Part shown: one piece after another, positions 41,919-64,000 of the stretch | Layout: every line of letters starts with the position of its first letter | Numbering within the stretch: position 1 is the stretch's first letter | From: Mycoplasma sp. Bg1 | GTDB lineage: Bacteria; Bacillota_I; Bacilli_A; Mycoplasmatales; Hepatoplasmataceae | DNA length: 64,000 nt | Assembly (NCBI GenBank): GCA_001641205.1 | Contig: LSMX01000003.1 | Location: forward strand, 120,177-184,176 | Direction of reading: 5' to 3' | Notes under the pieces: generated by a model | Database searches by the model: none | What the model was told of the DNA's origin: nothing | What the model saw: only the letters and a program-made list of their open reading frames with translations | Program-made: the position numbers and the translations under genes

Positions 41919-42087
41919 TTTTTCTCCAATAATAATTATATTTCTATTATATTACTAAATAATTAAGGAAATTTAAATATTTTAGATGGTTTGTTTTTTA
42001 TAAAAAAATAAAACAATTAAATAAAATAAATTTAATTTTTTTCTAATATTATTTAAATAAATTATTTAAATAAAGTAAGGGAAAAAC

Positions 42088-42321
42088 ATGAAAACAGAAA
42101 CAGACATAAAAACATTTTATTATTTAGGATTAATCTTTTTATTTATAGGATTATCAATATTTTTTGGAGTATTAGCAGGTTACTGTCATGAAGGAATAAA
42201 ATCTGCAAAGGATAGTTCTTATTATACTGCAACATTAAATCAGCATTTAATTTACTATTCATTTATTCTTTTGATATTTTTGCAATTCTTTTTACAATAT
42301 ATTCATTTAATAATTTTTTAA
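42088..42321 (+). CDS. small 2-TM membrane protein (77 aa), member of the repeated TM-module family
   Basis: ..KTFYYLGLIFLFIGLSIFFGVLAGY...LIYYSFILLIFLQFFLQYIHLIIF. Same layout as the two modules inside 48771..49517. Confidence 0.5.
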   Translation: MKTETDIKTFYYLGLIFLFIGLSIFFGVLAGYCHEGIKSAKDSSYYTATLNQHLIYYSFILLIFLQFFLQYIHLIIF

Positions 42322-42542
42322 ATTGTTTAAACGAAAAGAAAAAATTAAAATATGAAACTAATTACAATCCTATTAATTTTAAAAATACTCAAAATTAATA
42401 AAATAATAGGATTAAATATACTGTTTTAAATTAAAACCCTCAAAACTTTAATTTTTTATTTTATAAATAGCCTCCAACAAGAAAGCACTTTATTTTTAGT
42501 ATAATTATATTATTATATTCACAAAATAAAGGAAAAATAACT

Positions 42543-42977
42543 ATGCCACGAAGAAGAAGGGGTAAACCCATTATGACAACTGCTGTAACTATGAGTGCAA
42601 TGTCAAATAGAAAAACAAATAAAATGCAACAACAGCAAATGCAACAACAACAAACTCAGCAAACTCAACAACAACAAAATTATGCTACAGCACAAGACCC
42701 AATGCAACCTGCAACTCCTGTTCAACCAGAAGTAGTTGCACCAATAAAAGAAGAAGAACAAGCAGATCAAATTAGAACTATTGCTTCTGCAATTTCACTT
42801 TATCGAAAAAAAGGTTTAAGTTTTGCAGAAATCTTTACCAAAGTTGAAGCTTATAATAAAGGTTTTAAAAGTGAAGAAGATTTTAAAAAAGGATATTTAG
42901 ACTTTGTAAATGAAGAAGCAATTACTAATCCTAAATGAGAATCTGTACTTGAATTTGAACTAGAGCACCAAGAATAA
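42543..42977 (+). CDS. Arg/Gln-rich protein with conserved C-terminal domain, paralog A (144 aa)
   Basis: MPRRRRGKPIMTTAVTMSAMSNRKTNKMQQQQMQQQQTQQ.. then IRTIASAISLYRKKGLSFAEIFTKVEAYNKGF..W(TGA)ESVLEFELEHQE. RBS aaaggaaaaa and a tataat box lie upstream. Confidence 0.7.
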
Positions 42978-43017
42978 AATTCTAATTTAAATTTATAAAT
43001 TTGTTTATTATTAAAAT

Positions 43018-43047
43018 AAAAAAATAGGAATTAATTCCTATTTTTTT
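43018..43047. terminator. terminator hairpin (aaaaataggaatt/aattcctattttt family), copy 1
   Basis: Palindrome centred at 43032/43033 and flanked by A-run and T-run, so it could act in both directions (Q-rich gene on plus, ldh-like 2 on minus). Confidence 0.6.
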
Positions 43048-43128
43048 ATTTTCTTTATGTAATTTAAAATTTCCACTTTACAAAAAGCATTAATTCTTAT
43101 ATTAAGACTAATCTTATCTTTTATAATT

Positions 43129-44097
43129 TTAATTCTCTTCCCTAATTATAGAAAATGCTTTTAAGTTTAATTCTTTTAAAATTGAAATAGATTTAATAAA
43201 TTTAGCTTTTTCTTTTTCTGAAAGATCTAATTCGAAAGTTCTAATAATTCCTTCTTTTCCAATTAAACATGGAATTGCTGCATAAGTTCCTGCAATTCCA
43301 TATTCCCCCGAAAGAAGTGCTCCCGTTGCAAAAACTCTTTTTTCATCTCTTAAAACTGAACAAGCAATATCAACTAAAACCATTCCAATTCCATAACTAG
43401 TTAATCCTTTACGATTAAAAATTTCATAAGCTTTTTTTCAAACAGTTTCATGAACTTTAGCAAGTTTTTCTTCTGTAAGTCCATATTCTTCATATAATGT
43501 TGATAACTTAACTCCTTTTAATGTTGCAGCTGAAAATGCTGCAACAGAAGAATCTCCGTGTTCTCCCATTATATAAACATCAAAATCTTTTGGGGCTGCA
43601 TTTTCAATAAGTTTTGAAAGTTCTATTTTAAGTCTTGAAGAATCAAGAACACATGAAGCTGAAATTACTTTATTTGGTTCAATTCCAGTAATATGTTGAT
43701 AAATTATTGAAGCAGCTTCAAGTGGAGCTGAGGCAATAATAGTTATTCCTTTAAATCCGCTTGCTTTAACTTGAACTGCAATTGATTTCATAATTTTTAC
43801 AGTTCCTTCTAATAAATCATGTCTTGTTCCACCTGGTTTTAATGGTCCTCCCCCAGCAGCAATAATAAGTAAATCTGCATCTTTTAGAAGTTCATATCCA
43901 CCATCTTCTACAATATAATCACTTTCAATAGATCCTCTTCCATCTTCAAGATCAAGTTTTTGGCCATGAGCAAATTCACTTTTTAAATCAATAATTCCAT
44001 AATATTTTGCTAAATTTTGGTTTATTGCTGCATATAAAAATGATGTTCCTACATATCCAGCACCAATAACTACTACTTTATTTGTTGTATTTTCCAT
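43129..44097 (-). CDS. LDH-family 2-hydroxyacid dehydrogenase, variant specificity loop (paralog 2)
   Basis: VVVIGAGYVGTS, LDSSRL, GEHGDS, but the loop reads IAAGGGPLKPGGTR. That is one extra residue, Leu in place of Gln102, and Gly in place of the Glu before Thr-Arg. Confidence 0.8.
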
Positions 44098-44228
44098 TTC
44101 TACTCCTATTATAATTATTTTTTTAATCCTTAAAATTAATAAATATAAGACATTCTATGATCTTTATACCATTTTAAAATTTTTAAGTGAACTTTTACCT
44201 CTACTTAGGTTTTATTCCATAAATAACT

Positions 44229-45197
44229 TTAATTCATTTCTTCAATTATAGAAAGTGCTTTTACTTTTAAATCTTTTAAAACCAAAACAGATTTAATAAA
44301 TTGAGTTTTTTCTTTTTCTGAAAGTTCTAATTCAAAAGTACGAATAATACCTTCTTTTCCAATTAAGCAAGGAATTCCAGCATAAGTTCCTGCAATTCCA
44401 TATTCTCCTGAAAGAAGTGCTCCCGTTGCAAACATTCTTTTTTCATCTCTTAAAATTGAACGTGAAATGTCAACTAAAGTCATAGCAATTCCATAACAAG
44501 TTAATCCTTTACGATTAAAAATTTCATAACCTTTTCTTCAAACAGCTTCATGAACTTTAGCAAGTTTTTCTTCTGTAAGTCCATACTCATCATATAATGT
44601 TGAAAGTTTAACTCCTTTTAATGTTGCAACTGAAAAAGCAGAAACTGATGAATCTCCATGTTCTCCCATTACATAAATTCCAAAATCTTTTGGAGCTACA
44701 TTTTCAATAAGTTTTGAAAGTTCTAATTTAAGTCTTGAAGAATCAAGTGCACATGAAGCTGAAATTACTTTATTTGGTTCAAATCCAGTAACATGTTGAT
44801 AAATTGTTGTTGCTATATCAACTGGATTTGAAGCAATAACAGTTACTCCTTTAAAATCATTTGCTTTAACAGAAACTGCAATTGATTTCATAATTTTTGC
44901 GGTATCTTCAAGTAAATCAAGTCTTGTTCCGCCTGGTTTTAATGGCCCACCACCAGCAGCAATTATAAGCAAATCTGCATCTTTTACAAGTTCATAACCA
45001 CCATCTTCTACGATATAATCAGTTCCAATAGATCCTCTTCCATCTTCAAGATCAAGTTTTTGGCCATGAGCCATTTCTCTATTTAAATCAATAATTCCAT
45101 AATTTTTTGCTAAATTTTGGTTTATTGCTGCATATAGAAATGAAGTTCCTACATATCCGGCCCCAATAACTACTACTTTATTTGTTGTATTTTCCAT
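44229..45197 (-). CDS. LDH-family 2-hydroxyacid dehydrogenase, variant specificity loop (paralog 3)
   Basis: Same variant loop IAAGGGPLKPGGTR. Very similar to paralog 2 along its whole length. Confidence 0.8.
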
Positions 45198-45453
45198 TTT
45201 TTCCCCTCCAATAATTATATTTCATTATATTATTAAATATTTAACTGATTTAAAATATTTTAAAAAATCATTATACATAATTTATAAATTAAAAAAAACA
45301 AATTTATACTACAATAAAAAAATAAAATTAATAAAAACTTTAATTACATAAATAAGTTAAATTAATTTTAAAATAAACTTATTAATTGAGGAATAGATCT
45401 TATTTAGTATAATTTTATTATTATATTTATGAAATAAAGGAAAAAAAGTAATC

Positions 45454-45879
45454 ATGCCAAGAAGAAGAAGGGGAAGACCTCTTATGACAACCGCTGTAAC
45501 AATGAGTGCATTATCAAATAGAAAAACAAATAAAATGCAACAACAACAAATGCAGCAAGATCAACAAACGCAACAACAAAACTATGCAACAGCACAACAA
45601 CCAATGCAACCTGTTGCGCCTATTCAACAAGAAGTAGTTGCGCCAATACAAAAAGAAGAACAAACAGATCAAATTAGAACTATTGCTTCTGCAATTTCCC
45701 TTTATCGAAAAAAAGGATTAAATTTTGCAGAAATCTTTACTAAAGTAGAAGCTTATAATAAAGGCTATAAAAATGAAGATGACTTTAAAAAAGGATATTT
45801 AGATTTTGTAAATGAAGAAGCAATTAGTAACGCTAAATGAGAATCTGTACTTGAATTTGAATTAGAAAACCAAGAATAA
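45454..45879 (+). CDS. Arg/Gln-rich protein with conserved C-terminal domain, paralog B (141 aa)
   Basis: MPRRRRGRPLMTTAVTMSALSNRKTNKMQQQQMQQDQQTQQQ.. ..IRTIASAISLYRKKGLNFAEIFTKVEAYNKGY..W(TGA)ESVLEFELENQE. Its upstream region is homologous to that of paralog A. Confidence 0.7.
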
Positions 45880-45908
45880 AGCTATAAGAAAGTATCATTA
45901 AAATGAAT

Positions 45909-45941
45909 AAAAAAAATAGGAATTAAATTCCTATTTTTTTT
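45909..45941. terminator. terminator hairpin (ataggaatt/aattcctat family), copy 2
   Basis: aaaaaaaataggaattaaattcctatttttttt. Confidence 0.6.
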
Positions 45942-45956
45942 ATTATTATCTAAATT

Positions 45957-46354
45957 CTAATATGTATGTGTTGCTTCTTTTCCTTCAAGAATATCAACAC
46001 CGTTTGAAGTTCCAATTCTACTTGCCCCAGCATTAATATATGCTTCAGCATCTTCGTAGGTTCTAACTCCACCTGCAGCTTTAATTTTTGTATCAGGATT
46101 AATATTATCTTTCATAATTTTTACTGCTTCTAAAGTAGCTACTGAACAATCAATTCCTGTAGAAGTTTTTACAAAATCTCATTTTGCATTACTTGCAATT
46201 CTTGATGCTTTTGCAATTTGATCATCGCTAAGAAGAGCAATTTCTAAAATAATTTTAATTGTTGTTCCTTCTGTTGCAGCTCTAATTGCTTTTAGCTCAT
46301 TTTCAACGTATTCTCAATCTCCTGATTTAATCATGGAAACATTAATTACATAAT
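45957..46354 (-). pseudogene. deoC 3' fragment (about 132 C-terminal codons), copy 1
   Basis: Near-identical (a handful of mismatches by eye) to 49854..50251 of the intact deoC, including the stop codon. Homology ends abruptly after ..aattacataat at 46354. No 5' part and no start codon. Confidence 0.85.
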
Positions 46355-46555
46355 TAAATCTATCTACTTCTTTTATAAAAGCACTTTTTTTACTATACAA
46401 ATTTTAGTATTATTATTTTTATTTCAAAAAAATTACAAAATAAAACTAAAAATACAAAAATGATGTTTGTAATTATTGTAATTTAGATGAAATTAATTAG
46501 ATTAATTGTTTTAATAGTTATTTTAATTTAAAAAAGAATCATTTTCTCAATAAAT

Positions 46556-47176
46556 TTAGTTATTTATAATATTAAATATTTTTCTTGCAAACTGAAAATA
46601 TTCTTCTGTAGGTATTATTTTTGTTATTGGAATATCATAATTACTATGTACAATTTTATTTCTTTCAGAAATTATTTTTTTTCAAAGTTCATTATCATTA
46701 TTGGTTAAATTTTCAAAATTATCAATAATTAAAGAATGATAAAAATGATTATTTTTATTTTTTGTATTTAACAAAATAGAAATATCTTTTTTAACATTAC
46801 AGTTATTTCAAGTTTTGTTATTTAAAAAATCACTAATAAGTTTTATAAATAATTTTTTATTAAAATCATCAATATCCTCTCTTAACAAAATTTTGCCAGT
46901 AATTCTACTTATTTTTTCTCTATTATTGATATTTTCATCACTTAAAGATCTTTCAAAAAAATATTCAGACATTTTTGAAATAATATTTTTATCTAAAAAT
47001 TTATAACTTTCATTTTGAATACTCATTAAAACAAAATTTTTTCATTTGGTTTCTATTTCAGATACAATAAAAATATAAAAATACTCCACAATTATTTTTT
47101 GTTTAGGTGTAGTTACATCAAAAGAACTATTTTTAAGTTTTTTTTCCAGATAATTTAAGATTTCTATGTTTTCCAT
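46556..47176 (-). CDS. HEPN-like protein (206 aa) with C-terminal R-x4-H motif
   Basis: ATG at 47176 lies 1 nt after the DUF262 stop. The C-terminus ..ELW(TGA)KKIISERNKIVHSNYDIP.. contains RNKIVH (Rx4H). Codons 46556..46700 were hand-translated. Confidence 0.5.
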
Positions 47177-47177
47177 T

Positions 47178-48407
47178 TTAAATAATTAAATAATCACTAA
47201 ATGCGGTAAAAATTTTAGTATATTTCAACATTAATTGATTATTATTTCCTGTTCCTATTTTCAAACTTAAAAAAAATTTTTTTTCTTTATCATTAATAAA
47301 AAGAGATTTATAAATTTCTTGAAATTGCTGTTTTGAAATTTTTTCAAAATCTAGATATTTAAATAAAATTAATGTTGCCTCTGCCAAAGAAATATTAATT
47401 TTATTATCAAAATTAAAAAAATTCTCATTTTTTGAATTAGAATAAATTCTAAATATTTTAATTCCATCAAAATATTCTTTTAATTTATACATTAGCTTAT
47501 TTAAATCATTAATAATTTGCTCATTTTTTTCAATAGAATTTTTTGATGCTAATTTCATATAATTGTTTATTAAATAAATAATTCTTCCATTATAATCCAA
47601 AATTTTAATAGAAATTTCATTAAAATTATTTCTACTAAGTCTTATTTTTTCATAAAAAGACAAATATCTAAAAATAAGTTCGGTGTTTTTCATTCTTTTA
47701 ACAAAAACAGAATTTAGTGTTAAGTTTTCAAAAACTTTTCACTCTAAATTATCATTAGTAAATTTTTTGATTTTAGAGTTTAAATCACTTCTATAAATTG
47801 CATTACGTAATTCTTGAGTATTTAATTTCATAGATCCTTGGTTTAATCTAGAAAAAATATCAAATTTTAAAGATTCATCAGATCCTTTTCTAATTCTTAT
47901 TGTTTGTAAAACTTGAGTTTTTAAATAATTTTGGACTCCTATATTTAATTCTTCAAATTTTTTGCCATTTAAATTTTCAAATGATTCTAAACCTCTTAAT
48001 TTTCATTCATTATGTAAAAATGTTTGAATGGTTGTTAATCTTTGGACACCATCTATAACGTCAAATTTTGAATTTGTAGTTTCAAATAAATAAACTGGAG
48101 GTATAGTAATATTAATTAAGAGTGATTCAATAAATTTTGCTCCATTTAATATTGATCAAACAAAATTTCTTTGAAATTCTGGACTAATATTTCAATCTTC
48201 ATCATCTAATCTTCTACAAATATCTTGCAATTCAATGTTGGTGGTATCTATTATTAATGATTTAGGTTTTCAACCTTTTTCTTGATTATTAGCTTCATCA
48301 CTATCAAATTCTTCTTCTTTTTCATCATAACCAGAGTTTTTTTCAAAATCATCATTTTCTTTAGTCAAAATTGGTGCAAACTCTAATTCCTTAATTTTAT
48401 TATTCAT
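47178..48407 (-). CDS. DUF262 (ParB/GmrSD N-terminal-like) domain protein, 409 aa
   Basis: ..NISPEFQRNFVW(TGA)SILNGAKFIESLLINITIPPVYLFE..FDVIDGVQRLTTIQTFL (QR..W and DGxQR motifs). Acidic N-terminal extension. No DUF1524/HNH-type C-terminal domain recognised. Confidence 0.7.
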
Positions 48408-48492
48408 AATATTCCTTTTTATAATTATATAATTTTAAATAAACTAATTTAAAATTACTTTATTATTTAAAATAAATTTTGCATTTTTATAA

Positions 48493-48518
48493 AAAAATAG
48501 GAATCTAGTTCCTATTTT
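48493..48518. terminator. terminator hairpin family, copy 3 (degenerate loop)
   Basis: aaaaataggaa tctag ttcctatttt. Confidence 0.45.
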
Positions 48519-48530
48519 AATATTTAAAAT

Positions 48531-48756
48531 CTAATATGTATGTGTTGCTTCTTTTCCTTCAAGAATATCAACACCGTTTGAAGTTCCAATTCTACTTGCC
48601 CCAGCATTAATATATGCTTCAGCATCTTCGTAGGTTCTAACTCCACCTGCAGCTTTAATTTTTGTATCAGGATTAATATTATCTTTCATAATTTTTACTG
48701 CTTCTAAAGTAGCTCCTGAACAATCAATTTTTGTAGAAGTTTTTACAAAATCTCAA
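48531..48756 (-). pseudogene. deoC 3' fragment (about 75 C-terminal codons), copy 2
   Basis: Near-identical to 49854..50079 of the intact deoC. Homology stops at ..acaaaatctca, and 15 nt further on comes the stop codon of the next gene. Confidence 0.85.
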
Positions 48757-48770
48757 TTTAAAATAATTGC

Positions 48771-49517
48771 CTATTCTTGATTTTCCAATTCAAATTCAAG
48801 TACAGATTCTCATTTTTGATTAGTAATTGCTTCTTTATTTACAAAATCTAAATATCTTTTTTTAAAGTCCTTTTCATTTTTAAAACCTTTATTATAAGCT
48901 TCAACTTTAGTAAAAATTTCTGCAAAATTTAATCCTTTTTTTCTATAAAGGGAAATTGTAGAAGCAATAGTTTTAATTTGATCTATTTGTTTTTCATATA
49001 TAGATGCATCTGTCTCTAATTGAATATGGGCAGTAGTTTGTACTAATTTTAATGGTGTTTCATTATTATATAAACAAAGTATGCTTTTTATTATTCAATA
49101 TATTGATAAAAAAATTGTAAAAATGTCTATAAAAATAAATGCAATATAGAGAGAGTTGATTCAACTTGAAATCCCTACAGAATTAAACATTAGATCATTA
49201 ATTTCTTTTGTATATATTCCAAATAAAATTGCTAAGCCAAAAAATAAGAAGAATAAACCAAAATATATAATTACTTTAAATTGGTTAATATTTATATTAT
49301 TTTTGTCTATTTCTAAACAAAATATAATTTTTATTATTCAATATATTGAAAATAAAATTGCAAAAATATCGAAAAAAACAAAACTAGTGCGCCGTGCTCC
49401 ATAATATCAATGAAAATGATGTGCAATTACCCCAAACACAATTGCTAATGCTAAAAATAAAAATAATAATCCAAAATATAATATTACTTTAAATATATTC
49501 TTCTGTTGCAAATTCAT
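48771..49517 (-). CDS. fusion protein: two tandem 2-TM modules + the conserved C-terminal domain of the Arg/Gln-rich family (248 aa)
   Basis: I translated codons 49517 down to 48972 one by one and read the remaining 3' codons down to the TAG at 48771 by eye; no TAA/TAG was seen. MNLQQKNIFKVILYFGLLFLFLALAIVFGV..FDIFAILFSIYW(TGA)IIKIIFCL / ..NQFKVIIYFGLFFLFFGLAILFGI..FIDIFTIFLSIYW(TGA)IIKSILCL, then ..DQIKTIASTISLYRKKGLNFAEIFTKVEAYNKGF..WESVLEFELENQE. Confidence 0.7.
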
Positions 49518-49803
49518 TATTTTCCCCCAACAATTTAATAGTCTTATAATTTTAATTATATATTTAATGATAAAATAATGATTTAAATATATATTTATCT
49601 CCTATTTTTAATATATAAAATTATGTAATATAATAGCAATCTTCATATAAACATTTATATTTTTAAATATTTTTATTCACAATTCCTTTTTGCAAAAAAA
49701 CTAAATAATCAAGTGATTTTTAATTTTAAATAAAAATTTATAATCAATTCTATACTAGAACATCAAGAATAAATTTATAAATAAATATCATCAAAAATAA
49801 ATT

Positions 49804-49832
49804 AAAAAATAGGAATTAACTTCCTATTTTTT
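49804..49832. terminator. terminator hairpin family, copy 4
   Basis: aaaaaataggaa ttaac ttcctatttttt, directly downstream of the intact deoC. Confidence 0.6.
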
Positions 49833-49853
49833 AATGTTTATTATTTATAAATT

Positions 49854-50516
49854 CTAATATGTGTGTGTTGCTTCTTTTCCTTCAAGAATATCAACACCGT
49901 TTGAAGTTCCAATTCTGCTTGCCCCAGCATTAATATATGCTTCAGCATCTTCGTAGGTTCTAACTCCACCTGCAGCTTTAATTTTTGTATCAGGATTAAT
50001 ATTATCTTTCATAATTTTTACTGCTTCTAAAGTGGCTCCTGAACAATCAATTCCTGTAGAGGTTTTTACAAAATCTCATTTTGCATTACTTGCAATTCTT
50101 GATGCTTTTGCAATTTGATCATCGCTAAGAAGAGCAATTTCTAAAATAATTTTAATTGTTGTTCCTTCTGTTGCAGCTCTAATTGCTTTTAGCTCATTTT
50201 CAACGTATTCTCAATCTCCTGATTTAATCATGGAAACATTAATTACATAATCAAGTTCATCAGCACCTCTTCTAATTGCATCTTGGCCTTCAAAAACTTT
50301 AGCTTCGGTAGTTTGAGTTCCATAAGGAAATCCAACTACAGCTGTAATTCCAATGTTATTTGCATGTAATCTTTCTTTTACATAGTCAATTCACATTGGG
50401 TGAATACATAATGTAATAAAATTTCATTTAATTGCATCTTCTACGTATTTATCTAAAATTTCTTTTGTTGAATCTCTTTTAATTAAAGTGTGATCAATAT
50501 ATCTATTTAATTCCAT
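49854..50516 (-). CDS. deoC: deoxyribose-phosphate aldolase
   Basis: MELNRYIDHTLIK.., CIHPMW(TGA).., VVGFPYG.., W(TGA)DFVKTSTG (Schiff-base Lys), AAGGVRT. 220 aa, with TAG at 49854. Confidence 0.9.
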
Positions 50517-50713: not shown

Positions 50714-52099
50714 TTAAAATTTTTGGAAATATTCTAAATCTATTCCGTTTAATTCTAATCGCTTATTAATATAATTCTTAGTTTCTGGTGTTAAAATTGT
50801 TGAAATTAGAGAATGTTCTAATTTTTCTGATTTAATTTGCTTAACAATTTCCCCATATTCATCCTTTTTAATTCAAATATTTCCCTCTTGATCAAAAACT
50901 AATATATTTTTATCAAATAATTTATGAATAGTTGGGCCTAGTAATAAACCATTTTCAGGATCATATTTTTCATCTTTATTACATTTTATAAAATCAACAA
51001 TATGAGAAGCTTCTATTGCATACGAATTTTTCATTCCTTTAATTAAATCATTTTTATTAATAAATTCTTGTTCATTAATTTCAATATATCTTTTAATATC
51101 ATTCAATAAAAGTTGACGATATTGTACTTGTCCTGGTCTACCATTATCATTTTTTATAAAAAATTCTAAAACTTTAGATTGAATTGTTAAAATTTCTACT
51201 TTTCAATCATTTAAATATTTTTCAAATAAAAAATCATTTAATTTATTAAAGATAGTCATTGCTAAATTTAAATCATTTTTAATTAAATTTTTAATTGTTG
51301 TTTGAGTTCCGAAATGTTTTCCAATAGAAGATTTTCCACTTTTATGTGTTTTAAATAATTCTGGAAGAGGAATTTTTTGGTTTTTTTGTTTTCTTAAAAT
51401 TACTACAATATCTAAGCAAACTGGAAAATTGCTATTACATAATTCATATAAAAAGAGTGCATGTAATGAAAAGAAAATATCTCTAATTGAATAACCCTTA
51501 ATATATTTTAGATTAAAATAATTTTTATAATTATTAACAAAATTAGATGCTAAATCAATCTTATCAATAATATAATCATCAATTATTTTTGATTTAAAAA
51601 TTAGATTAAAATAATTACTTGGAGCAAAATCTTTTTGAATTTCCAAATAACCCAAGCTTGCCATAACCTCTATAAATTGTCTTAGAGTTGATTTTGCAAT
51701 TAACTTTTTAAAATTTCTTCTATCATTAAAATAATCTTCTATTTTAAAAATTCACTCTCCCTCTTTTCCAATATAAAGAGCACTAGTTAAATAAGTTAAT
51801 TTTTGATCAACTCTTTTATAAATATTTAGATAATACCGTTTTTCTTTTTTAGTCTTTTTTTGTACTTTTAAAATTGATTCTTTTCATTCAAGAAAAATTT
51901 CTTCTTTTTCTAAATCAAGATTATAAGTTTTTAATAAATAGATAAACAAATTATTTATCCGACATAAATGAGTAAAAAAATCAGTTCCCATTGTTCAAAC
52001 AAATCCTCATTGATCTTTTTTAGTAATATCATCATTCATTTCAACTTGTTTTTGATAGATTGCTTTAATTTTAGTAATTTGATCTTTTGAAAATTCCAT
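50714..52099 (-). CDS. putative type II restriction endonuclease with C-terminal HNH (HNH_2-like) nuclease motif, 461 aa
   Basis: ATG at 52099 lies 1 nt after the methylase stop and is preceded by ggagga. C-terminal ..EASHIVDFIKCNKDEKYDPENGLLLGPTIHKLFDKNILVFD. Pieces 51203 and 50873 share one frame. Confidence 0.65.
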
Positions 52100-52100
52100 C

Positions 52101-53398
52101 TTATTCCTCCAAAGTAGACATATAGTAAAATATCATTTCGATGATATTTACTGCAATTGAATTTCCTGCCTGTTTATAAAGCTTTTCTCTTGCTTGATTA
52201 TCTGTCTTAGCTCGGTATTTTTTAGTAACAAGAAGCATCTCTTTTTTAGCACTTTGATACTGCTTTTCACTAAAACCCATAAGAAGATATGCTTCTCTTG
52301 GGGTAATAAATCTTCAATTAGTATAATCAACTCCATTATTATCAAATCTTTTATTATTAAAAGCAACTGATCCACAATTTGGTAATCTATCCTGTTTTGT
52401 TGTTACTGTTGGAATATGTTTTAAATTAATATCAATGCAAGGAGAAGAATCAATCATTCTTATTCTTGAAGGAGTATTTTTAATTTGTGCTCAAAGCGAT
52501 TCTTCAAAATCTTTATTAGAAAAATCTATTAATTTCTTAATAGGTTTTTTATTTTTTGGTTGATAAATTTTACAAGTATAGATTTTTTTTAAAATAATTT
52601 CAAGATCATCTCTTGTTCCTTTTCAAGAAACTATTTCATTATTAGGATCATAAATAGAAAAAGCATAAACACGGCGTCTTTTTTGGACCATTCCAAAATC
52701 ACTTGAATAGAGCATTCCCCAAATTGTTTTATAACCTAAAAGCTCTAATTGCTCCATCCAAGCATCAAAGTCTGCTCGATGTTGTTTTTGAACTAAATTA
52801 GGAACATTTTCAAGTAGGAGGAATTTTGGTAATAAATTTGGGCGTCTCTCTCTCTCTCTCTCTCTCTCTCTTCTTGAATTGCTTTAAGATTTATTAAAAC
52901 CTTTTCAATTTCAAGAAGTAACCCTGATCTGGTATGGGCTTTTATTCCCTCATTAAAGCCGTGAAAATTACCTGCAGTAGATAAATCAGTACAAGGAAAA
53001 GAATAAGTAAGCAAGTCTACTCCATTGTTATCTTCAATTATTTTTTTTATTCTAGTAGTTGAATCTACTATAGTTCCAATGTTACTAGCAACTTTGAAAG
53101 CTTTATATCAATCAAGTTTTACTTCTTTTTTAATTGTAGAAGTATTTAAAAAAGGTTTTGATCCATCAAGACTAAAAGTATTTTTTTTAATTCAATTATC
53201 AAGTTCATCATCAGTTGGAGTTTTAATCTTACTTCGATAATTTTTATAATGAATTGCAGCATAGGACTGAGCAGCAAAAACATCCCAATCGGATGTTCCT
53301 ATAATTTCATAATCAAGAATGCCTTTACTCTTTAAGTTTTTTAGGGCAGTATTTTGTGCTCCAATTCCACTAAAAGTTTCAATAACTTTAAATTTCAT
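52101..53398 (-). pseudogene. DNA (cytosine-5)-methyltransferase, out of frame at an internal (GA)13 tract (candidate phase-variable gene)
   Basis: 5' frame: MKFKVIETFSGIGAQ (motif I), SFPCTDLS (motif IV). After the repeat, the motifs continue in another frame: RPNLLPKFLLLENVPNLV (VI), QKRRRVY (VIII), ITPREAYLLMGF, GNSIAV (X). Total length is 1298 nt, which is not a multiple of 3. Confidence 0.85.
52845..52870 (-). repeat. (GA)13 dinucleotide tract inside the methyltransferase ORF
   Basis: Thirteen tc units on the plus strand, counted directly. 12 or 15 units would restore a single 431/433-aa frame. Confidence 0.95.
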
Positions 53399-53528
53399 AT
53401 AAAAAAATTATATACAGAGGCAAAACTAAAACTGCTGTGAAAAAAATAATATAATGATTTAATAATATAGAAATTCAATTTTTAGAAATATTGATAATAA
53501 ACCTTTTACCACATAAATTGTGTTTATC

Positions 53529-53543
53529 TTTTTTTTTTTTTTT
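53529..53543 (+). promoter_or_regulatory. T15 homopolymer in the divergent promoter region between the methyltransferase and surface-protein gene 1
   Basis: 15 consecutive T, counted. It ends 65 nt upstream of the ATG at 53609 and is followed by tataaat (53557..53563). Confidence 0.5.
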
Positions 53544-53608
53544 GTTATTCCATTATTATAAATTTATAGATAAATAATAAATTTTAAGAAAGGAATAAGT
53601 AAATAAAT

Positions 53609-54733
53609 ATGAAGAAACAATATTTAATTGGTTTACTAGGACTTACAATAATATTTACCCCAGTTGCAAATAGTTTATTAAGTACCAATTCAAAATTATT
53701 TAATTCTACATATACAAATAATCAAATACAAGAAGAATCTATAATTAACGAAGAAAATAGCCAAGTAATTGTAAAAGATCTTGATAATGATGGAAAAGCA
53801 AGTCAGGGTGATCAAATTGATGAAATACAATTTAGTGCTAATTATGATGAATTTTATCCTCTTTATGAAGATAAATCTAAAACTACTTCATCTAATGAAT
53901 ATGGATTAAATATTTATCCAGAAAATTCACCTAATACTGTAAAACCTTTTTATAGTATTTCTTATAATCAAATTGATGAGTTAAATCAAAATCAAAATGT
54001 AGACTTTTTAAATTTTGATTTTAATTCTACTAATAATCCAACTTGAAAAATTTGAGATGCAAAACTTCCTGATAGTAGTCAAGAATTTATCATAACTGCA
54101 GAAAGCAAAAAAGATAATCATCAAGAAAAAATAATAGAAAATAATATTGGTGAGGTTTCAATTACACCATATATAAAGGATGAAAATGACTGAAGCGAAC
54201 CAAAAGTTTATGATGCAAAAGTAACCGAGAATCCAACTGGTGCATTTATGAACCCACAAGCAACTATCTCCTATGAAGTAGATTATGGTAATAATGGAGG
54301 TGACCGTGGTGGAAAAAAATATCAATTGACAAAACTAGAAATCATTAATATAAACGGTACTGAAATTAAAAATGGTACAAAATATGCAGACAAAGCAAAC
54401 CAAGGTAGCATTGGAGATGATGATTGATTGATAATACTAACTCCTAATACATATTATGATTTATATATGAAGGCAATTTTTCATGACCCTGATGATAAAA
54501 ATGCTGAAGGAATTACTCAAACAGTAAAATTTGATGATGATAGTGGCAAATTTGATACTTTTGATGATAAAGATCCTGATCCCACACCGCCCATTCCCAC
54601 ACCGCCCATTCCCACACCACCTGGTCCTTCTAGTAGTAATACAATGATAATGATTGGAATAATAATTGGAGTTATACTCTTTGTTGGAATTATTTCTTTC
54701 ATCGGATATTATTTATATAAAAAAAATAAATAA
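53609..54733 (+). CDS. surface protein family member 1 (374 aa): signal peptide, ectodomain, Pro/Thr stalk, C-terminal TM anchor
   Basis: MKKQYLIGLLGLTIIFTPVANS.. (no lipobox Cys), DLDNDGKASQGDQIDE, PTPPIPTPPIPTPPGP, then IMIGIIIGVILFVGIISFIGYYLYKKNK. Pieces 53609 and 54428 share one frame and are joined by TGA. Confidence 0.75.
54581..54620 (+). repeat. 15-bp tandem repeat encoding the PTPPI stalk (about 2.7 copies)
   Basis: cccacaccgcccatt cccacaccgcccatt cccacaccac. Confidence 0.85.
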
Positions 54734-54752
54734 TAAAGTTAAAAATAACATT

Positions 54753-54782
54753 AAAAAAAGTAGAGATATTTCTACTTTTTTT
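54753..54782 (+). terminator. rho-independent terminator after surface gene 1
   Basis: aaaaagtaga gatatt tctacttttttt. Confidence 0.6.
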
Positions 54783-54821
54783 AATTTTACTATTCATTAT
54801 GTTTTTTATTAATTGGAGTTT

Positions 54822-54995
54822 TAATCTTACATCAATTATTATAATAAATCACAACATTAAGTTGAGCAACAAAAACATTCTACTTAAAATATTTTTATAA
54901 TTTTGAAATAAAAAAATACCTTTATTCTTTAAGTTTTTTAAAGCAGTATTTTGTGCTCTAATTCTGCTAAAAATTTCAAGAACTTTAAATTTCAT
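54822..54995 (-). pseudogene. decayed copy of the methyltransferase 5' end
   Basis: MKFKVLEIFSRIRAQNTALKNLKNKG.. versus MKFKVIETFSGIGAQNTALKNLKSKG of the full gene. Internal deletions, with motif I destroyed. Homologous to about 53214..53398. Confidence 0.8.
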
Positions 54996-55193
54996 ATAAA
55001 AAATTATATGTAAAAGTAAAGATAAAACTATTGTATATAATGATTTAATAATATAGAAATTCAATATTTAAAAACATGATAATAAATCTTTTACCACATA
55101 AATTGTGTTTATCTTTTTTTTTTTTTTTGTTATTACATTATTATAAATTTATAGATAAATAGCAAATTTTAAGAAAGGAATAAGTAAATAAAT
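54996..55193. repeat. duplicate of the 53399..53608 divergent intergenic/promoter region
   Basis: Same sequence blocks (..taatatagaaattcaat.., ..ttaccacataaattgtgtttatc-Tn-gttatt.., aagaaaggaataagtaaataaatATG). Confidence 0.85.
55113..55128 (+). promoter_or_regulatory. T16 homopolymer upstream of surface-protein gene 2
   Basis: 16 consecutive T, counted. Same position as the T15 tract in the paralogous promoter. Confidence 0.5.
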
Positions 55194-56651
55194 ATGAAGA
55201 AACAATATTTAATTGGTTTACTAGGACTTACAGTAATATTTACCCCACTTGCAAATAGTTTATTAAGTACCAATTCAAAATTATTTAATTCTACATATGC
55301 AAATAATCAAATACAAAAAGAATCTATAATTAATGAAGAAAATAGCCAAGTAATAGTTAAAGATCTTGATCATGATGGAAAAGTAAGTCAAGGAGATCAA
55401 ATTGATGAAATACAATTTAGTGCTAATTATGATGAATTTTATCCTCTTTATGAAGATGAAACTAAAACTACTTTATCTAATGAATATGGATTAAATATTT
55501 ATCCAAAAAATTCGCCCAATACTATAAAACCTTTTTATAGTATTTCTTATAATAAAATTAATGAGTTAAATCAAAATCAAAATGTAGACTTTTTAAATTT
55601 TGATTTTAATTCTACTAATAATTCAACTTGAAAAATTTGAGATGCAAAACTTCCTGATAGCAGTCAAGAATTTATTATAACTGCAGAAAGTAAAAAAAAT
55701 AATAATCAAGAAAAAATAATAGAAAATAATATTGGTGAAGTTGCAATTTTATCATATGTAAACAATGCAAATGGGCAAGATAACCCAACAATAACTTCTG
55801 CAAGAGTAACCAAAAAAACATTTTTTTCTACATACATAAATGTTAAGGTTGACTATGAAGTAGATCTTGGCAATAATGGAACTAGTAGAATTAATAATAA
55901 ATACAATTTAACAGAAATTATAATCACTAATAAATTGGATCATAATAATCCAGTATATTCTGTGGATAAATCTAGTGCTAAGGGCCACTTAACTTTTGAC
56001 CTGCCACTTGGTGTAGACTATGATTTAAGCATGACAGCAATTTTTGATGACCCCGCGAGTTCTTCTAAAAAATCTGATACAGCTGACATCATAGGTGGTA
56101 ATATTGTAGATACTGAAAGAAAGCCTAAATTTGATTATCCAACTGCAGTTAAAATTGATACGAAAAATAATATTTTAGAAATTAAGGGAGAAATTTCTAC
56201 TAATGGTTCTAAAATAAATTCATTGTGGCTTACAAATGAAAATCATGATGTTGAAACTTGAATATATAAATATGATGATAAAGGAGATACATTTTATTAT
56301 GATATCTGGACTCCTGATTACACTGAAAATACTACAGATAGTCTTAAAAATTATAATTTAGGAGTGTGATACACCCTAAATGTAAATACCGATTATTATT
56401 CTATTGGTCTTTGACAAGTTTTAGAAAAAGATAGAACAACCGGTGAAGATTTAAGTTATTTGGAAGATGATTCTTATTATCAAGGCAATACTTCTGGAGG
56501 AGATGATTCTTCTGATGGAGGCGGTTCTGAAGGAGGTGGTTCTTCCAACAATAATAATACAATGATAATAATTGTAATAATAATTGGAATTGTACTTTTT
56601 GTTGGAGCTATTTCTTTCATCGGATATTATTTATATAAAAAAAATAAATAA
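55194..56651 (+). CDS. surface protein family member 2 (485 aa)
   Basis: N-terminal 145 aa are nearly identical to member 1. Gly/Ser/Asp-rich stalk (GGDDSSDGGGSEGGGSS) and the same C-terminal anchor (IGIVLFVGAISFIGYYLYKKNK). Pieces 55194, 55935 and 56460 share one frame. Confidence 0.75.
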
Positions 56652-56670: not shown

Positions 56671-59600
56671 ATGAAGAAGCAATATTTAATTAGTTTATTA
56701 GGACTATTTGCAATATTTGCTCCGCTTGGAAATGGAATAGTAAACACAAAATTAAATTCTTCAACTAATGAAAAAACTACTGGGATAGCGATGAAAGAGA
56801 CTAGTAAAATTTCTCTAATTGATAGTGATGGTTCAAAGGATGTAAGTACAAGAGATAAAATAAATTCTATTTCATTTGATGGAGAATGAGTTTTTGAAAA
56901 TTGAGGAGGAAAGGAATATTATGATGTAGATGATCCTTCTAAAGAAGGTTTAAATTTATATGGTTCATCAAAACCAGATGAACCTTTATTAGAAGTTTCC
57001 TATAAAACCCTTAAGAACAAAGGTACTTATGATTTAAGTGATGACTCTGATATTTTAACTTATAGTATAGAAGCAAATTCTTTAAATAATACAGAAGTAA
57101 AAATATGAGGTTATGAAATTGCTATAGGAGAAACTTTTGAAATAACTGCAGATTATAATTCAACTAAAGAACCAAAAAATATAAAAGAGGATAATCTTGG
57201 AACAATTGAATTGACAATATCTGATCCAAGCACAATTAAACGAACTAGCAATGTTGAAGTTACCATAACTCCACTTGAAGCAAAAGTAGATTATAAAGTA
57301 ATTCCAGGATTAGATACTAGTGGTAATCTTGAAACAGTTGAATTTGTAAGATGAATGAATGGATCATGAGAACTTGCAAGTTCAGAAAAAGAAGAAGATA
57401 CTTTAATTGCTACAAGTCCTAAATTAGAATCAGATGTAAATTATAATAATACAACACTTATAGCTAGAATGAGTGGTGGATGAACTGAATCAGTAGAAGT
57501 TGACCCTTTTAATACAATTTCAAAAAATGAGCCATCCACAATCGACCGAATTGGTAGAGCCCAAGAAACTAGTTCTACTGAAGCAAATGTTAATTATGAA
57601 GTAGATCCCGGAAAAGATGTTAATGGCCAAGATTTAACAGTTATTGAAGTTAAATGAATGGATGGTACAGAAAGGCTTGCAACTTCAACAAATACAAAAG
57701 GTACTTTAATCGCCACTGATTTAATACCAAATCACTCATATAAAAATACAATAATAGTTGCAGAAATGAGTGATGGAAGTTTTACTAATGATGCTAAAAT
57801 TAATGACTTTAAAACTAAAAAAGGTAAAACAAAATCTTCAATTAAAGAAGTTGGTACTGTTAATGTAACTGGGCCCAACACTGCGAATGTTGGTTATGAA
57901 GTAACTCCCGGAACTGATAAAAATGGTGATCTTTTAACAGTTGAAAAAGTAGTTTGAATAAAAGGTGCACAAACAGATGGTAAACCAGAACTTGCAACAG
58001 ATGATGAGGACAATGGAATTGATGGAATTTTAGAAACCGATAGTTTAAACCCAAGTCAGAAATATGAAAAAACAACACTTAAAGCCAAAATGAGTGATAA
58101 TACATGGACTGACCCTGCTCAAGTTGAAACTTTTACAGCAGGTCAAGATATATCAACAATTGAACAAGTTGACAATGTTAGTGTAACTAGTTATAACTCT
58201 GCAAGTGTCAAATATAAAATACACTGTGGAAAGAATGTTGATGGCGAAGATTTAACAGTTAAAGAAGTGCAATGAGTAGAACATTCAGGACAAACAAAGC
58301 TTGCTTCTGAAAAAACAGAGGATGAAAATGGTGTTTTATACACCACTAATTTAGAAGGAAATTTATCTCATGATACAACACTTAAAGCCCAAATGAGTGA
58401 TTATTCGTGAATTGAAATTGATGTTAGATCTTTTGAAACCCCTGCATGTAATGAACCATCGACAATTGAAAAGGTTGATGACATTAATGTAACCAGTTCT
58501 ACTGAAGCAAATGTTAGTTATAAAGTAAACCCTGGAAAAGATGTTTATGGTCACCCAGTAACAGTTAAAAAAGTAAGATGAATGGATGATAATAAAGAAC
58601 TTACAGCTTCACTAGATACAGAAGGCACTTTATATGCACATGATTTAAGCCCAAATCAAACATATTATAATACATATATAATTGCTGATATGAATGCTGG
58701 AGAACAAACAAATACAGTTTTAGCAGGAACATTTACAACAGAACCAGGTAATGTTAATTCAAAAATTAAGGAAGATGGAGAAGTTGAGGTTACTAGCTCC
58801 ACAGAAGCAAATGTCAACTATACTGTAACACCAGGAAAAGATGTCGATGGAAATGATGTAACAGTTGAAAAAGTAGAATGAATAAATGGTGAAGACATTC
58901 TTGAAACAAATAAAGGTAATGGAATTGATGGAATTTTAGAAGCAGATGAATTAAGTCCAAATCAATCCTATAATAATACAAAAATAATTGCTTATATGAG
59001 TGATGGAACCAAAACAAGACCTGTTAAAATAGAACCATTTCATGTATTACCTGGTGATGAACCTTCAGAACTTAATAGTGATGGAAAAGTTGATATAACT
59101 AGTTCTACAGAAGCAAATGTTAATTACACTGTAACACCAGGAAAAAATGTTGATGGAAAAGATGTAACAGTTGAAAAAGTAGAATGAATAAATGGTGAAG
59201 AAATTCTCGCAATAGATAAAGGTAATGGAATTGATGGAATTTTAGAAGCAGATGAATTAAGTCCAAATCAACCCTATAATAATACAAAAATAATTGCTTA
59301 TATGAGTGATGGAACCAAAACTAATGTAATTAATGTTGGTTCATTTCAAGCATGACCTGGTGATGAACCATCAACAATTAAACAAGATGGAATAGTTAAT
59401 GTAACTAGCTCTACTGAAGCAAATGTTAACTATACTGTAAGACCAGGAAAAGATGTTGATGGAAATGGCTTAACAGTTATTAAAGTTAAATGAATGAATG
59501 GTGATGATATACTTGCAACTTCAACAGAAGCATCTGGAAATTTATCAACTAATCAACTAATTGCAGAACAAATTTATGATAATACAACAATAGTTGCAGA

Positions 59601-60156
59601 AATGAGCAATGGAACTTCAACTAATATTATTGAGGTTGATCCATTTCTAGCACATCCAAGTACACCAGTTAATAAGCCAACTGCAATTAATATTGATGAA
59701 CCAAATGGAATTTTACAAGTTGAAGGAAATATTACATTAAATGAAGCAACTGCAAAATCAATAGATGTTAATATTATTAATGAAAAAGGCGACATTGTAA
59801 CAACAGGTTGTGAAATTATTGATAATGGTGATAGTATTTCTTATAGTGTCTTTACTGATCAATATAATGGAAATATAGATAATTATAGATTACAAATTAC
59901 TTATGAAATTGATGGTAAAAAACAAGAACCACTTGAAAATGAATATATAGATATTCAAGAACCAAAAAACATAACAAATGAAGATGCAGATTTATCTAAT
60001 TTAATAGACAATGATGATGGCGATGATAATAATGGTGAGACTGGTAATACAAGTAGTAGTAAACTTGGATTAATAATAGGTATTGTGGCAGTAATCACAA
60101 TTTTATTTTCTGCAGTAATGGGATTTTTCTTATTTATAAAACTTAAAACTAAATAA
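56671..60156 (+). CDS. giant surface protein family member 3 (1161 aa) with tandem beta-rich repeats and C-terminal TM anchor
   Basis: MKKQYLISLLGLFAIFAPLGNG.., DSDGSKDVSTRD, repeats, then acidic DNDDGDDNNGE and the anchor LGLIIGIVAVITILFSAVMGFFLFIKLKTK. All pieces (57658, 58090, 58582, 58996, 59494) share the frame of ATG 56671. RBS aaagggaaaa. Confidence 0.75.
57352..59790 (+). repeat. about 7.5 tandem coding repeats of 300-318 bp (about 102 aa) in surface gene 3
   Basis: Unit boundaries fall at in-frame TGA(Trp) codons 57352, 57655, 57955, 58273, 58579, 58879, 59185 and 59491. Consensus: W-x-[DN]-G..LA...G.L....L.PN..Y.NT.I.A.MSDG..T....F.....PS.I...G.V.VTSSTEANVNYTVTPGKDVDG.D.TV.KV. Confidence 0.85.
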
Positions 60157-60170
60157 ATATTAATAATATT

Positions 60171-60200
60171 AAAAAAAGTAGAAATATTTCTACTTTTTTT
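60171..60200 (+). terminator. rho-independent terminator after surface gene 3
   Basis: aaaaagtagaaat atttctactttttttt, paralogous to the hairpin at 54753..54782. Confidence 0.6.
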
Positions 60201-60201
60201 T

Positions 60202-60355
60202 ATTCAACTTTAAAGAATATTGTTAGTTGGAGTTTTAAGCTTATTTCAATAATTATTATAATAAATTGTAATACAGGGTTGAGTAGCAAAAACATCCTAG
60301 TTGGATATTCAATAATTTCGCAATCAAGAACGGCTTTGTTTTTTAAGTTTTTTAG
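60202..60355 (-). pseudogene. second decayed fragment of the methyltransferase 5' region
   Basis: ..agttggagttttaagcttatttcaataatt..gagtagcaaaaacatcctagttgga..caatcaagaacggctttgttttttaagttttttag aligns with 53190..53345. No start codon. Confidence 0.7.
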
Positions 60356-62221: not shown

Positions 62222-64000
62222 TTAATATTTATCTCCTCAATATTTTTTAACTATTTGTGATATTTCAGTTGATCTTTTGAGAATATTATCAATATTAAAA
62301 TCTATAACATCTAATTTAGTTAAAACTCCATTTATTCCATCAAGAGTTAATGATTTAGCTTCATTATTTATAGTATTACAATATTCTCTAATATTATCTT
62401 TATATAGTAAACTTCTTTTAGAATTTTTAGCAACAAAATAATTTCCAATCATATCTATATATTCAGGATATTCTGATTTTATTTCATCATATGAAATTTC
62501 ATCTGTTTCATTATTTAATTGATTAATAATTTCTTCTGTATAATTTGGCGGCAATAATTGAAAAGCATTTAATAAACTATTATTATTGCTAAAATTGTTT
62601 TCAATTGTAGACAATATTGTTTTACACATATTGCTACTATCTATTGGCCGTTTTGCAATAAAATTAATAAATGTATTTTCAGGAATCATTTGAAATTGTA
62701 AATCTATATCATTTACAAGAAAATTTCATAAATCTTTTGGAATTTTGATTTCATTAGTATTAATTGCTTTTATAACTTTATATACATATTTTCCAAGTGA
62801 AGCTAATCTATCTCCAGAAATACTTCTTCTAATATAATGAATTTCCATAATTTTAAGCATTTCACTAAAATCATTATCATTATTAATTTTTAATAATTTT
62901 GAATCAAATTGATCAAAAGTTCCATTGATTAAAATTAAGTTAGAGATAATTGGCAAAATAATTGAATTTGACATAATTATTTTAGCATCATTATAAAATG
63001 GTTTTAAAACATCAATTTTTTCAAAATTATGAATATTACTTGCAAGAATAAATACTTCTAAATATTTTCCTAAATTACTAATAAAATTTTCAAAATTTTC
63101 AAATGAAGTAATTTTATTATTTACATCTACATAATTTTTTACAAAATAATGTTTAAATCTTTTATAAATTGTTAAATCATTTCTTCATTCATATATATTA
63201 TTAGAAACATTTAAATAAAATACAAAAAAATCATCTTGAGCACGTTCAATAGTAGATTTTGTATAATAATTTTCAAATTTAACTTGAATATGATTTTCAA
63301 ATAAATTAATTATTTTCAAATCATTTTCTCTATAAAGATTTTCATCAATAGAGCTTAATAAAAAATTTTTAATTTTGTCATAATTTGTTAACTGTTTAGA
63401 TTTTGAATTTAAATTTTCAAAAATTTCAAATTCATTAATATCCTTTTCAAACCATATAATACCCACTTCAAGTTTTGATAAGGCACAAAGTAAATTGATA
63501 ATATAATCAGAAGCATCAGCGTTTTCATTTATTTTTGAGAAAATGTAATTTTTCATATAATTATAATTTTGATAAACTGAACTTTCCTTATATTGTCTAT
63601 TTGTATATATAGAATCATTTAGTAGAACTTTTTCATCACCTAATAAATAATATTTCAAAAGATTTTGTGTTCTTTCATTATTAATTCTATTTTTCAAAAA
63701 ATTAATTAACAAAGAATTTTCAGTATTAAATAATTCATTTAATAGTTTACTAGATGTAATTTTGTTTTTAAGACAAACATCATAAATTGCTCTTAACAAT
63801 AAAAGAATTGTTGTTATTCTTTGTTGACCGTCCATAATGGAAAAAGAATTTTCTTTTTCTGAATTTCTTCCAAAACTTAGAACTCCGAAAAAATATGAAA
63901 AAATTGTTTTTTCATTATTTATAATTCCTTCTAAATCAAAAAGTAATTCTTCAATATTGGATCTTGATCAATCATAATTTCTTTGATATGGTGGTACAAA
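62222..64000 (-). CDS. large DUF262-family protein, 5' end beyond the window (at least 592 aa)
   Basis: ..VPPYQRNYDW(TGA)SRSNIEELLFDL.. and SIMDGQQRITTILLL (DGQQR). Pieces 63185, 62726 and 62237 share one frame. I translated the 62975..63184 gap codon by codon and it is open. TAA at 62222. Confidence 0.7.

Follow-up and report, generated by a model that had tools for sequence, protein, structure and literature searches.

Two runs of exactly fifteen thymines (T15) lie upstream of two paralogous genes for putative surface proteins in the genome of Mycoplasma sp. Bg1, and the question that this locus raises is what such tracts do in their promoters. A first-pass annotation had taken them for probable slipped-strand ON/OFF switches. 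The window that we analysed is a 64-kb stretch of contig LSMX01000003.1 with 26% G+C (74% A+T); it is mollicute sequence, in which TGA encodes tryptophan and the open reading frames (ORFs) are continuous only under genetic code 4. From their position, length and setting, the tracts are plausible slippage-prone promoter elements of a kind known in mycoplasmas, and we put the claim that their length modulates expression in natural populations at about an even chance. As detailed below, the mode of action that the locus favours is a graded one, and an ON/OFF flip is less likely.

The first tract lies on the plus strand at 53529..53543 and ends 65 nt 5' of the ATG of gene 1 (position 53609). Reading of the sequence and a regular-expression count both give 15 T, as had been annotated. 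The second tract, in the promoter region of gene 2, had been recorded as 16 T at 55113..55128, which is a miscount by one: base 55113 is a C, and the real tract is a T15 at 55114..55128 (plus strand), which ends 65 nt 5' of the ATG at 55194 and aligns with the first tract column for column in a pairwise alignment. The length difference that had been reported between the two paralogues is thus absent, and since the tracts are equal in length the only direct hint of slippage falls away. The remaining positional statements proved accurate: the distance to the start codons, given as about 65 nt, is exactly 65 nt in both cases, and the tataaat box placed just downstream of the tracts is found as TATAAAT, 13 nt 3' of each (53557..53563 and 55142..55148).

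To place these runs in their background, A/T homopolymers were counted across the window. The counts show a sharp ceiling at 8 nt, with 41 runs of length 8, none of 9–14 nt and two of 15 nt, so that the ceiling is broken only by the two promoter tracts. Under a first-order Markov model about 44 A/T runs of at least 9 nt and about 0.4 runs of at least 15 nt are expected; the T15 tracts are more than chance and stand as extreme outliers. In 58.2 kb of Mycoplasma sp. Bg2, joined from four loci (record 61898..120088), the runs of at least 9 nt consist of one T9 terminator tail and one further T15, where 0.02 runs of at least 15 nt are expected. The ceiling observed in both the window and Bg2 suggests that, outside the promoter tracts, runs prone to slippage are strongly selected against. 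Slippage and switching rates of 1e-3 to 1e-5 have been given for tracts of 7–9 nt (PMC2831843), and T15, which occurs twice in the window, is far above that length.

The comparison with Bg2 extends beyond the count. Both Bg1 and Bg2 have draft genomes assembled from short reads; they are Hepatoplasmataceae from the stomach of Bathynomus, a deep-sea isopod, with an average nucleotide identity of 84% and an average amino acid identity of 66% (PMC10928387, PMC7301438). The ATG that follows the Bg2 T15 (L001:3197..3211) at 87 nt belongs to the first of five clustered genes whose products, like those of the window genes, start with MKKQY; a terminator precedes each of the other four, none of which has a long tract. 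The T15-headed Bg2 gene has its best blastp match in window gene 3, the family member that lies downstream of gene 2 (30% identity over ~850 aa), and in both species T15 therefore heads a transcription unit with this type of gene. In all three copies T15 precedes, by 65–87 nt, the ATG of an MKKQY-family gene at the head of a transcription unit. The flanks of the Bg2 and window tracts do not align, except for a short block found by MAFFT (window ATTATTATAAAT, Bg2 ATTATTAGAAT), and T15 would be either old and maintained, or independently acquired. Gene conversion could explain the equality of the two window copies, but not that of the Bg2 copy. Candidate −10-like hexamers in Bg2 are TATTAT, 13 nt after the tract, and TAGAAT, 19 nt after it, at distances from the ATG that match the internal Bg2 family promoters; in these internal genes a T7–T8 terminator tail is found 14–17 nt upstream of the −10. 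A short palindrome is also present 6–7 nt upstream of T15 in both species (CACAtaaatTGTG at window 53510..53522, TGTATATACA at Bg2 L001:3181..3190); in A+T-rich DNA it could have arisen by chance, or it could be a small binding site.

The Bg2 tract bears on one alternative, that the T15 tracts have no function, being either a neutral expansion copied by tandem duplication or a length artefact of short-read assembly. The two window copies were duplicated together and so count as one evolutionary event, and the related genomes are short-read drafts (PMC10928387), both of which agree with this explanation. However, the Bg2 T15 stands before a homologous cluster in flanks that cannot be aligned, which duplication does not explain, and a neutral origin fits poorly with a window that has no runs of 9–14 nt. 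As for an artefact, assemblers do not create 15-nt homopolymers, and the ORFs of the window are intact. We consider this explanation improbable.

The position of the tracts relative to the core promoter was examined in both window copies. In copy 1, two overlapping −10-like hexamers, TATTAT (53554..53559) and TATAAA(T) (53557..53563), form a block at 53554..53563 (plus strand), 10 and 13 nt 3' of the tract, which is the putative −10; the corresponding TATTAT/TATAAAT block of copy 2, placed from the sequence and the pairwise alignment, is at 55139..55148 (plus strand). The block is as far from the ATG as is usual for other promoters in the window and for the Bg2 family genes. Between block and start codon lies a Shine-Dalgarno-like sequence, AAGAAAGGAA (53586..53595, plus strand), which is conserved before all family genes and is presumably complementary to the 3' end of the 16S rRNA. 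The other genes of the window have clear TATAAT boxes 30–60 nt before the ATG, with inconsistent −35 regions, as is usual in mollicutes. Measured from the putative −10s, the tract would span roughly −23 to −40 and cover the −35 position (in Bg2, it would reach to about −46). The 79–80 nt upstream of the tract are A/T-rich and 92% identical between the two copies, with no usable −35 hexamer upstream of the tract at a workable spacing: the upstream flank and the nearest −10-like hexamer are 25–28 nt apart, a distance made up of the tract and the 10–13 nt that follow it. When one T is gained or lost, the sequence from the −10 to about −36 stays identical.

This geometry decides against the specific switch to which the tracts had been likened. 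In the vlp promoters of M. hyorhinis the tract is the spacer between the −35 and the −10, and a single base switches expression ON or OFF; a switch of this type needs a spacer of 16–18 nt. At the present locus the −35 position falls within the tract, which thus does not separate a −35 from a −10, with 25–28 nt between flank and −10, and a spacer switch of the vlp type is therefore unfit for this locus.

The surroundings of the tract also allowed two further explanations to be weighed. The first takes the T run for the U-tail of an intrinsic terminator that might, for example, insulate the divergent genes; in its favour, terminator T-tails do occur directly 5' of the promoters of internal Bg2 cluster genes. 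However, the best hairpin before the window tract has 4 bp, folds at −2.9 kcal/mol and lies 6 nt away, and that of Bg2 folds at −1.9 kcal/mol and is distant; by comparison, genuine terminators here have folding energies of −14.7 and −12.4 kcal/mol. Moreover, no plus-strand gene ends upstream of copy 1, and the complementary strand has no hairpin. With no stable hairpin adjacent to the tract, the terminator reading is effectively refuted, and we regard it as extremely improbable.

The second is that the tract is transcribed. A possible upstream promoter, TTGATA-17-TAAATT (53491..53519), ends 9 nt before the tract and is the best sigma-70-like match nearby (9/12). Transcription from it would start 1–3 nt before the T run, so that the RNA would begin with about U15, and either reiterative transcription, which is sensitive to UTP, or a U-rich leader would set expression. 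UTP-sensitive stuttering of RNA polymerase is known from pyrBI, codBA and upp of Escherichia coli. By eye, the layout in Bg2 is similar (TTGAGA, 16 nt, TATATA, 9 nt, T15). On the other hand, 9/12 matches occur here at chance frequency (29 found, 30.5 expected), the Bg2 hexamer lacks the conserved final T, and the −35-like hexamer of copy 2 is weakened by an indel. It is the downstream −10-like block, at the usual distance from the ATG, that MAFFT aligns between the species. No significant RNA structure is predicted for the putative leader (z −0.48), and no Rfam match was found in the window, by which a structured leader or a known RNA element was also set aside. A transcribed tract is, in our judgement, unlikely.

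With these readings weighed, the tracts can be compared with characterized promoter repeats. The outer-membrane-protein genes of Helicobacter pylori carry T or A tracts of 9–16 nt at, overlapping or next to the −35 (PMC4081817, Aberg et al. 2014). The likeness to sabA of H. pylori is close in several respects: the tract is a T run of 13–16 nt at or overlapping the −35 position (here the predicted one) of the gene for an outer-surface protein; the organism has only a few regulators and lacks mismatch repair; divergent genes flank the tract, and of their promoters only the nearer one would be affected; and a second, dinucleotide repeat (CT) nearby acts by frameshift, in H. pylori within the same gene and here in the neighbouring one. 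The two systems differ in that H. pylori belongs to another phylum and that no −35 hexamer is recognisable here. They also differ in that length variation between strains and in infection, as well as an effect on RNA polymerase binding, were measured for sabA, whereas our comparison is drawn from sequence, in which all copies are equal. In positional terms, a length-dependent modulator of the sabA type appears to fit better than a vlp switch.

Among mollicutes, poly-A vlp of M. hyorhinis, vmm of M. mycoides and vmc of M. capricolum, with (TA)n, resemble the present locus as variable families of surface proteins with conserved 5' ends (PMC2268961), in which each gene has its own repeat-bearing promoter and a slippage-prone tract lies upstream of the −10. 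The promoter tracts of vlp, maa2 and vmm are cited as switches (PMC2268961). In addition to the geometry discussed above, vlp differs in its products: those encoded here are not lipoproteins, as they have no lipobox Cys, and carry a C-terminal anchor instead. The closest positional match is provided by the poly-T of M. arthritidis maa2 and the T-tract of M. agalactiae vpma, each located in a mollicute immediately 5' of the −10 of a gene for a surface protein.

We propose that each T15 forms, as a homopolymer, an integral part of the promoter of a surface-protein transcription unit, which would be gene 1 alone in one case and the operon of genes 2 and 3 in the other. Mollicutes are not known to have MutS/MutL mismatch repair. 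In such a genome, a 15-nt homopolymer would be bound to gain and lose T residues often by slipped-strand mispairing. A change of length would leave the core promoter untouched, and would move and rotate the A/T-rich upstream DNA relative to the −10. Tract length would then most likely tune transcription in a graded or periodic manner, as in the sabA rheostat of H. pylori, and a vlp-like flip between ON and OFF is less likely. T15 itself may be the selected modal state, probably one of high expression, with variants arising around it; the same length is found in three copies, that of Bg2 in unrelated flanks, and is therefore read as selection on the modal length. The slipped-strand phase switch first proposed thus survives in part: the promoter position, the hypermutable length, the outlier status, the T15 of Bg2 and a neighbouring gene with a (TC)13 repeat speak for it, while the length difference between paralogues and the spacer switch do not hold.

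Several observations weigh against tract length as a modulator of expression. All three available T15 copies, two in the window and one in Bg2, are exactly T15, so that the difference in repeat length looked for in a contingency promoter does not occur among them, and equal length in three copies is not expected of freely drifting or unconstrained hypermutable switches. No other assembly or strain with gene 1, gene 2 or the N-terminus of the methyltransferase was found by exact-protein look-up. A metagenome scan for these genes gave one marginal 1.2-kb contig, and a profile search with a sequence alignment returned only the query's own protein. The length of a 15-nt homopolymer in short-read draft assemblies could, moreover, be off by one, and the sigma-70 consensus scan of the region gave matches at the level expected by chance in A+T-rich DNA (29 against 30.5). 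Finally, the vpma promoter T-tract just upstream of the −10 showed no phase variation in phase-locked mutants of M. agalactiae, whereas maa2 is cited as switching with tract indels (PMC2268961); the position of a tract alone therefore does not predict its behaviour.

Some of these points bear on the main rival explanation, a fixed promoter element, which we hold to be a real, if minority, possibility. The tract would be a rigid, length-constrained poly(dA:dT) that serves as a substitute for the −35, as a UP-like enhancer or as a protein-free zone; purifying selection would keep it at 15 and remove variants, with no adaptive switching. Such an element would account for the exact T15 in two paralogous copies whose flanks have diverged by about 5%, and in a third copy from another species with unalignable flanks. 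The internal Bg2 family genes, with a T run at a comparable distance (the T7–T8 tail, 14–17 nt from the −10), and the vpma T-tract without phase variation (PMC2268961) are also in agreement with it. However, a 15-nt homopolymer is not mechanically stable; the rates cited above of 1e-3 to 1e-5 are reached already at 7–9 nt (PMC2831843), and a need for T-richness could be met by a stable interrupted tract, in a window that otherwise has no runs above 8. The neighbouring repeat-switch gene further shows that the organism tolerates or exploits such switches. The unusual feature of the locus, an identical T15 across two species whose genomes otherwise avoid runs above 8–9 nt, also leads to a further explanation, in which a promoter element is locked in length. 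Here 15 T would be held by selection at the start of the surface-protein clusters in two mollicutes that share an isopod gut, and read by length, for example through a specific fit of RNA polymerase or by a tract-binding factor, and rare slippage variants would form a bet-hedging subpopulation in a host that lacks adaptive immunity; we think this unlikely.

The genes downstream of the tracts belong to one family. Gene 1 (53609..54733, plus strand) encodes a 374-aa surface protein under code 4, with the signal or anchor sequence MKKQYLIGLLG, a Pro-rich stalk and a C-terminal membrane helix, and is followed by an intrinsic terminator (54753..54782, plus strand; hairpin of −14.7 kcal/mol, z −5.9, then T7). 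Gene 2 (55194..56651, plus strand) encodes a 485-aa paralogue, 70% identical to the gene 1 protein over the first ~290 aa and with the same C-terminal anchor, and gene 3 (56671..60156, plus strand) a family member of 1161 aa with tandem repeats of ~100 aa. The gap between genes 2 and 3 is 20 nt and contains a Shine-Dalgarno-like sequence and no terminator, while a terminator is found after gene 3 (60171..60201); genes 2 and 3 probably form one operon. All three proteins start with MKKQYLI(G/S)LLGL and end in a hydrophobic helix with a basic tail (GYYLYKKNK in genes 1 and 2), and have variable beta-rich middles.

Searches gave no Pfam matches for the three proteins. An AlphaFold2 model of the gene 1 protein is all-beta with a C-terminal helix, but its pLDDT of 45 is too poor for use. 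An exhaustive HMMER search found 36 family representatives among 1.84 billion proteins, and those that could be placed come from this genome and from Bg2. On the other side of the Bg2 T15, 426 nt away, there is a divergent array encoding eleven giant RCC1-repeat proteins of 1035–1448 aa (L001:1..2770, L008, L007 and L006; Bg2 record ~72.9–117.6 kb), which share homology with window gene 3 in their C-terminal repeats (E about 1e-114). The products of genes 1–3 look surface-exposed, judging from features of their sequences (a signal-like N-terminus, the Pro-rich stalk, the C-terminal helix and the KKNK tail), and with their conserved ends and variable middles they look like members of a multigene family that is diversifying. 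Together with the paralogy, these features bear out the annotation of the tracts as lying in the promoter regions of paralogous surface-protein genes.

Both tracts lie inside a tandem duplication of ~1.59 kb (53179..54188 against 54773..55773, with 88.6% identity over 1016 nt by blastn). The duplicated unit joins the 5' end of a C5 DNA methyltransferase gene (minus strand) to the first ~570 nt of the surface-protein gene, with the intergenic region between them. When the copies are compared, the methyltransferase piece is 81% identical and the distal intergenic part 63%; the 79 nt upstream of the tract reach 92%, the stretch from tract to ATG 95% and the 5' end of the coding region 94%. The intergenic regions, described by the first-pass annotation as nearly identical, are so over the proximal ~145 nt (92–95%), but not over the distal ~50 nt (63%, with a 10-nt indel). 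Only copy 1 adjoins a real methyltransferase gene. The apparent second one, beside copy 2, is a degenerate remnant of the 5' end (54773..54995, minus strand) that forms part of the duplication and in which the FSGIG motif reads FSRIR. A third decayed copy of the methyltransferase 5' end is located at 60191..60355, after the terminator of gene 3; it is 78% identical to 53179..53344, has no promoter or T tract, and implies repeated tandem duplication followed by partial loss.

The divergent C5 cytosine DNA methyltransferase gene itself (52101..53398, minus strand) is split by a frameshift, and both halves match PF00145. Sequence count and frame modelling identified a (TC)13/(GA)13 repeat inside the gene at 52845..52870, just before the ENV motif, which is out of frame. 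The frame is restored by removing one repeat unit or adding two: with (TC)12 or (TC)15, a single modelled ORF of 431 or 433 aa runs through the ENV motif. In the model, an intragenic repeat thus sets the frame of an otherwise intact gene, which makes this a candidate phase-variable methyltransferase or restriction-modification system; a gene for an HNH nuclease (50714..52099, PF13391) follows, its start overlapping the methyltransferase stop. Phase-variable dcm-type methyltransferases with poly(GA) or poly(G) are described in M. pulmonis, M. crocodyli and M. agalactiae (PMC9465063), and the (GA)13 in the middle of this C5 methyltransferase ORF is at a documented switch position. The present system differs from them in the HNH nuclease gene that follows, and the likeness concerns the divergent gene, not the T tracts. 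The (TC)13 frameshift shows that repeat-based contingency genes occur at the T15 locus.

Control of this methyltransferase gene by the tract, which the first-pass annotation noted to lie upstream of this gene as well, is a different matter. The probable methyltransferase −10 is a TATAAT 8 nt 5' of the ATG, a spacing that points to a leaderless transcript, and this −10 is more than 110 nt from the tract. In the divergent pair hp_0350 and pyrG of H. pylori, only the nearer promoter responds to the tract (PMC4081817), and control of the methyltransferase by T15 is therefore unlikely.

Some other features of the window deserve mention. A C8 run (G8 on the coding strand) is found at 5142..5149 in an FtsA-like gene (4602..5768, minus strand; weak PF14450 match) between ftsZ and rsmH. 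The gene is in frame with 8 bases, and 7 or 9 bases would cut the protein to 242 or 214 aa. Segmental duplications occupy 40959..50516, where three lactate-dehydrogenase-like paralogues (319–322 aa) and three proteins with a common C-terminal domain follow each other in alternation. Of these last three, two begin with MPRRRRG and have Gln-rich regions, and the 220-aa gene at 49854..50516 has a truncated duplicate of its C-terminal part at 45957..46334. A protein with a GmrSD_N (DUF262-type) restriction-endonuclease domain is encoded at 62222..63835 (minus strand); its match starts at profile position 63, and its N-terminus may be truncated. Together with the restriction-modification genes it suggests a small defence region flanking the surface-protein genes.

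Hepatoplasmataceae possess large adhesin-like surface proteins that are thought to mediate attachment (PMC10928387). If the T15 tracts modulate expression, they would be the first predicted repeat-based contingency promoter in this family of uncultured isopod gut symbionts. It would also be a case of stochastic surface variation put to use in an invertebrate host, one with no antibody response.

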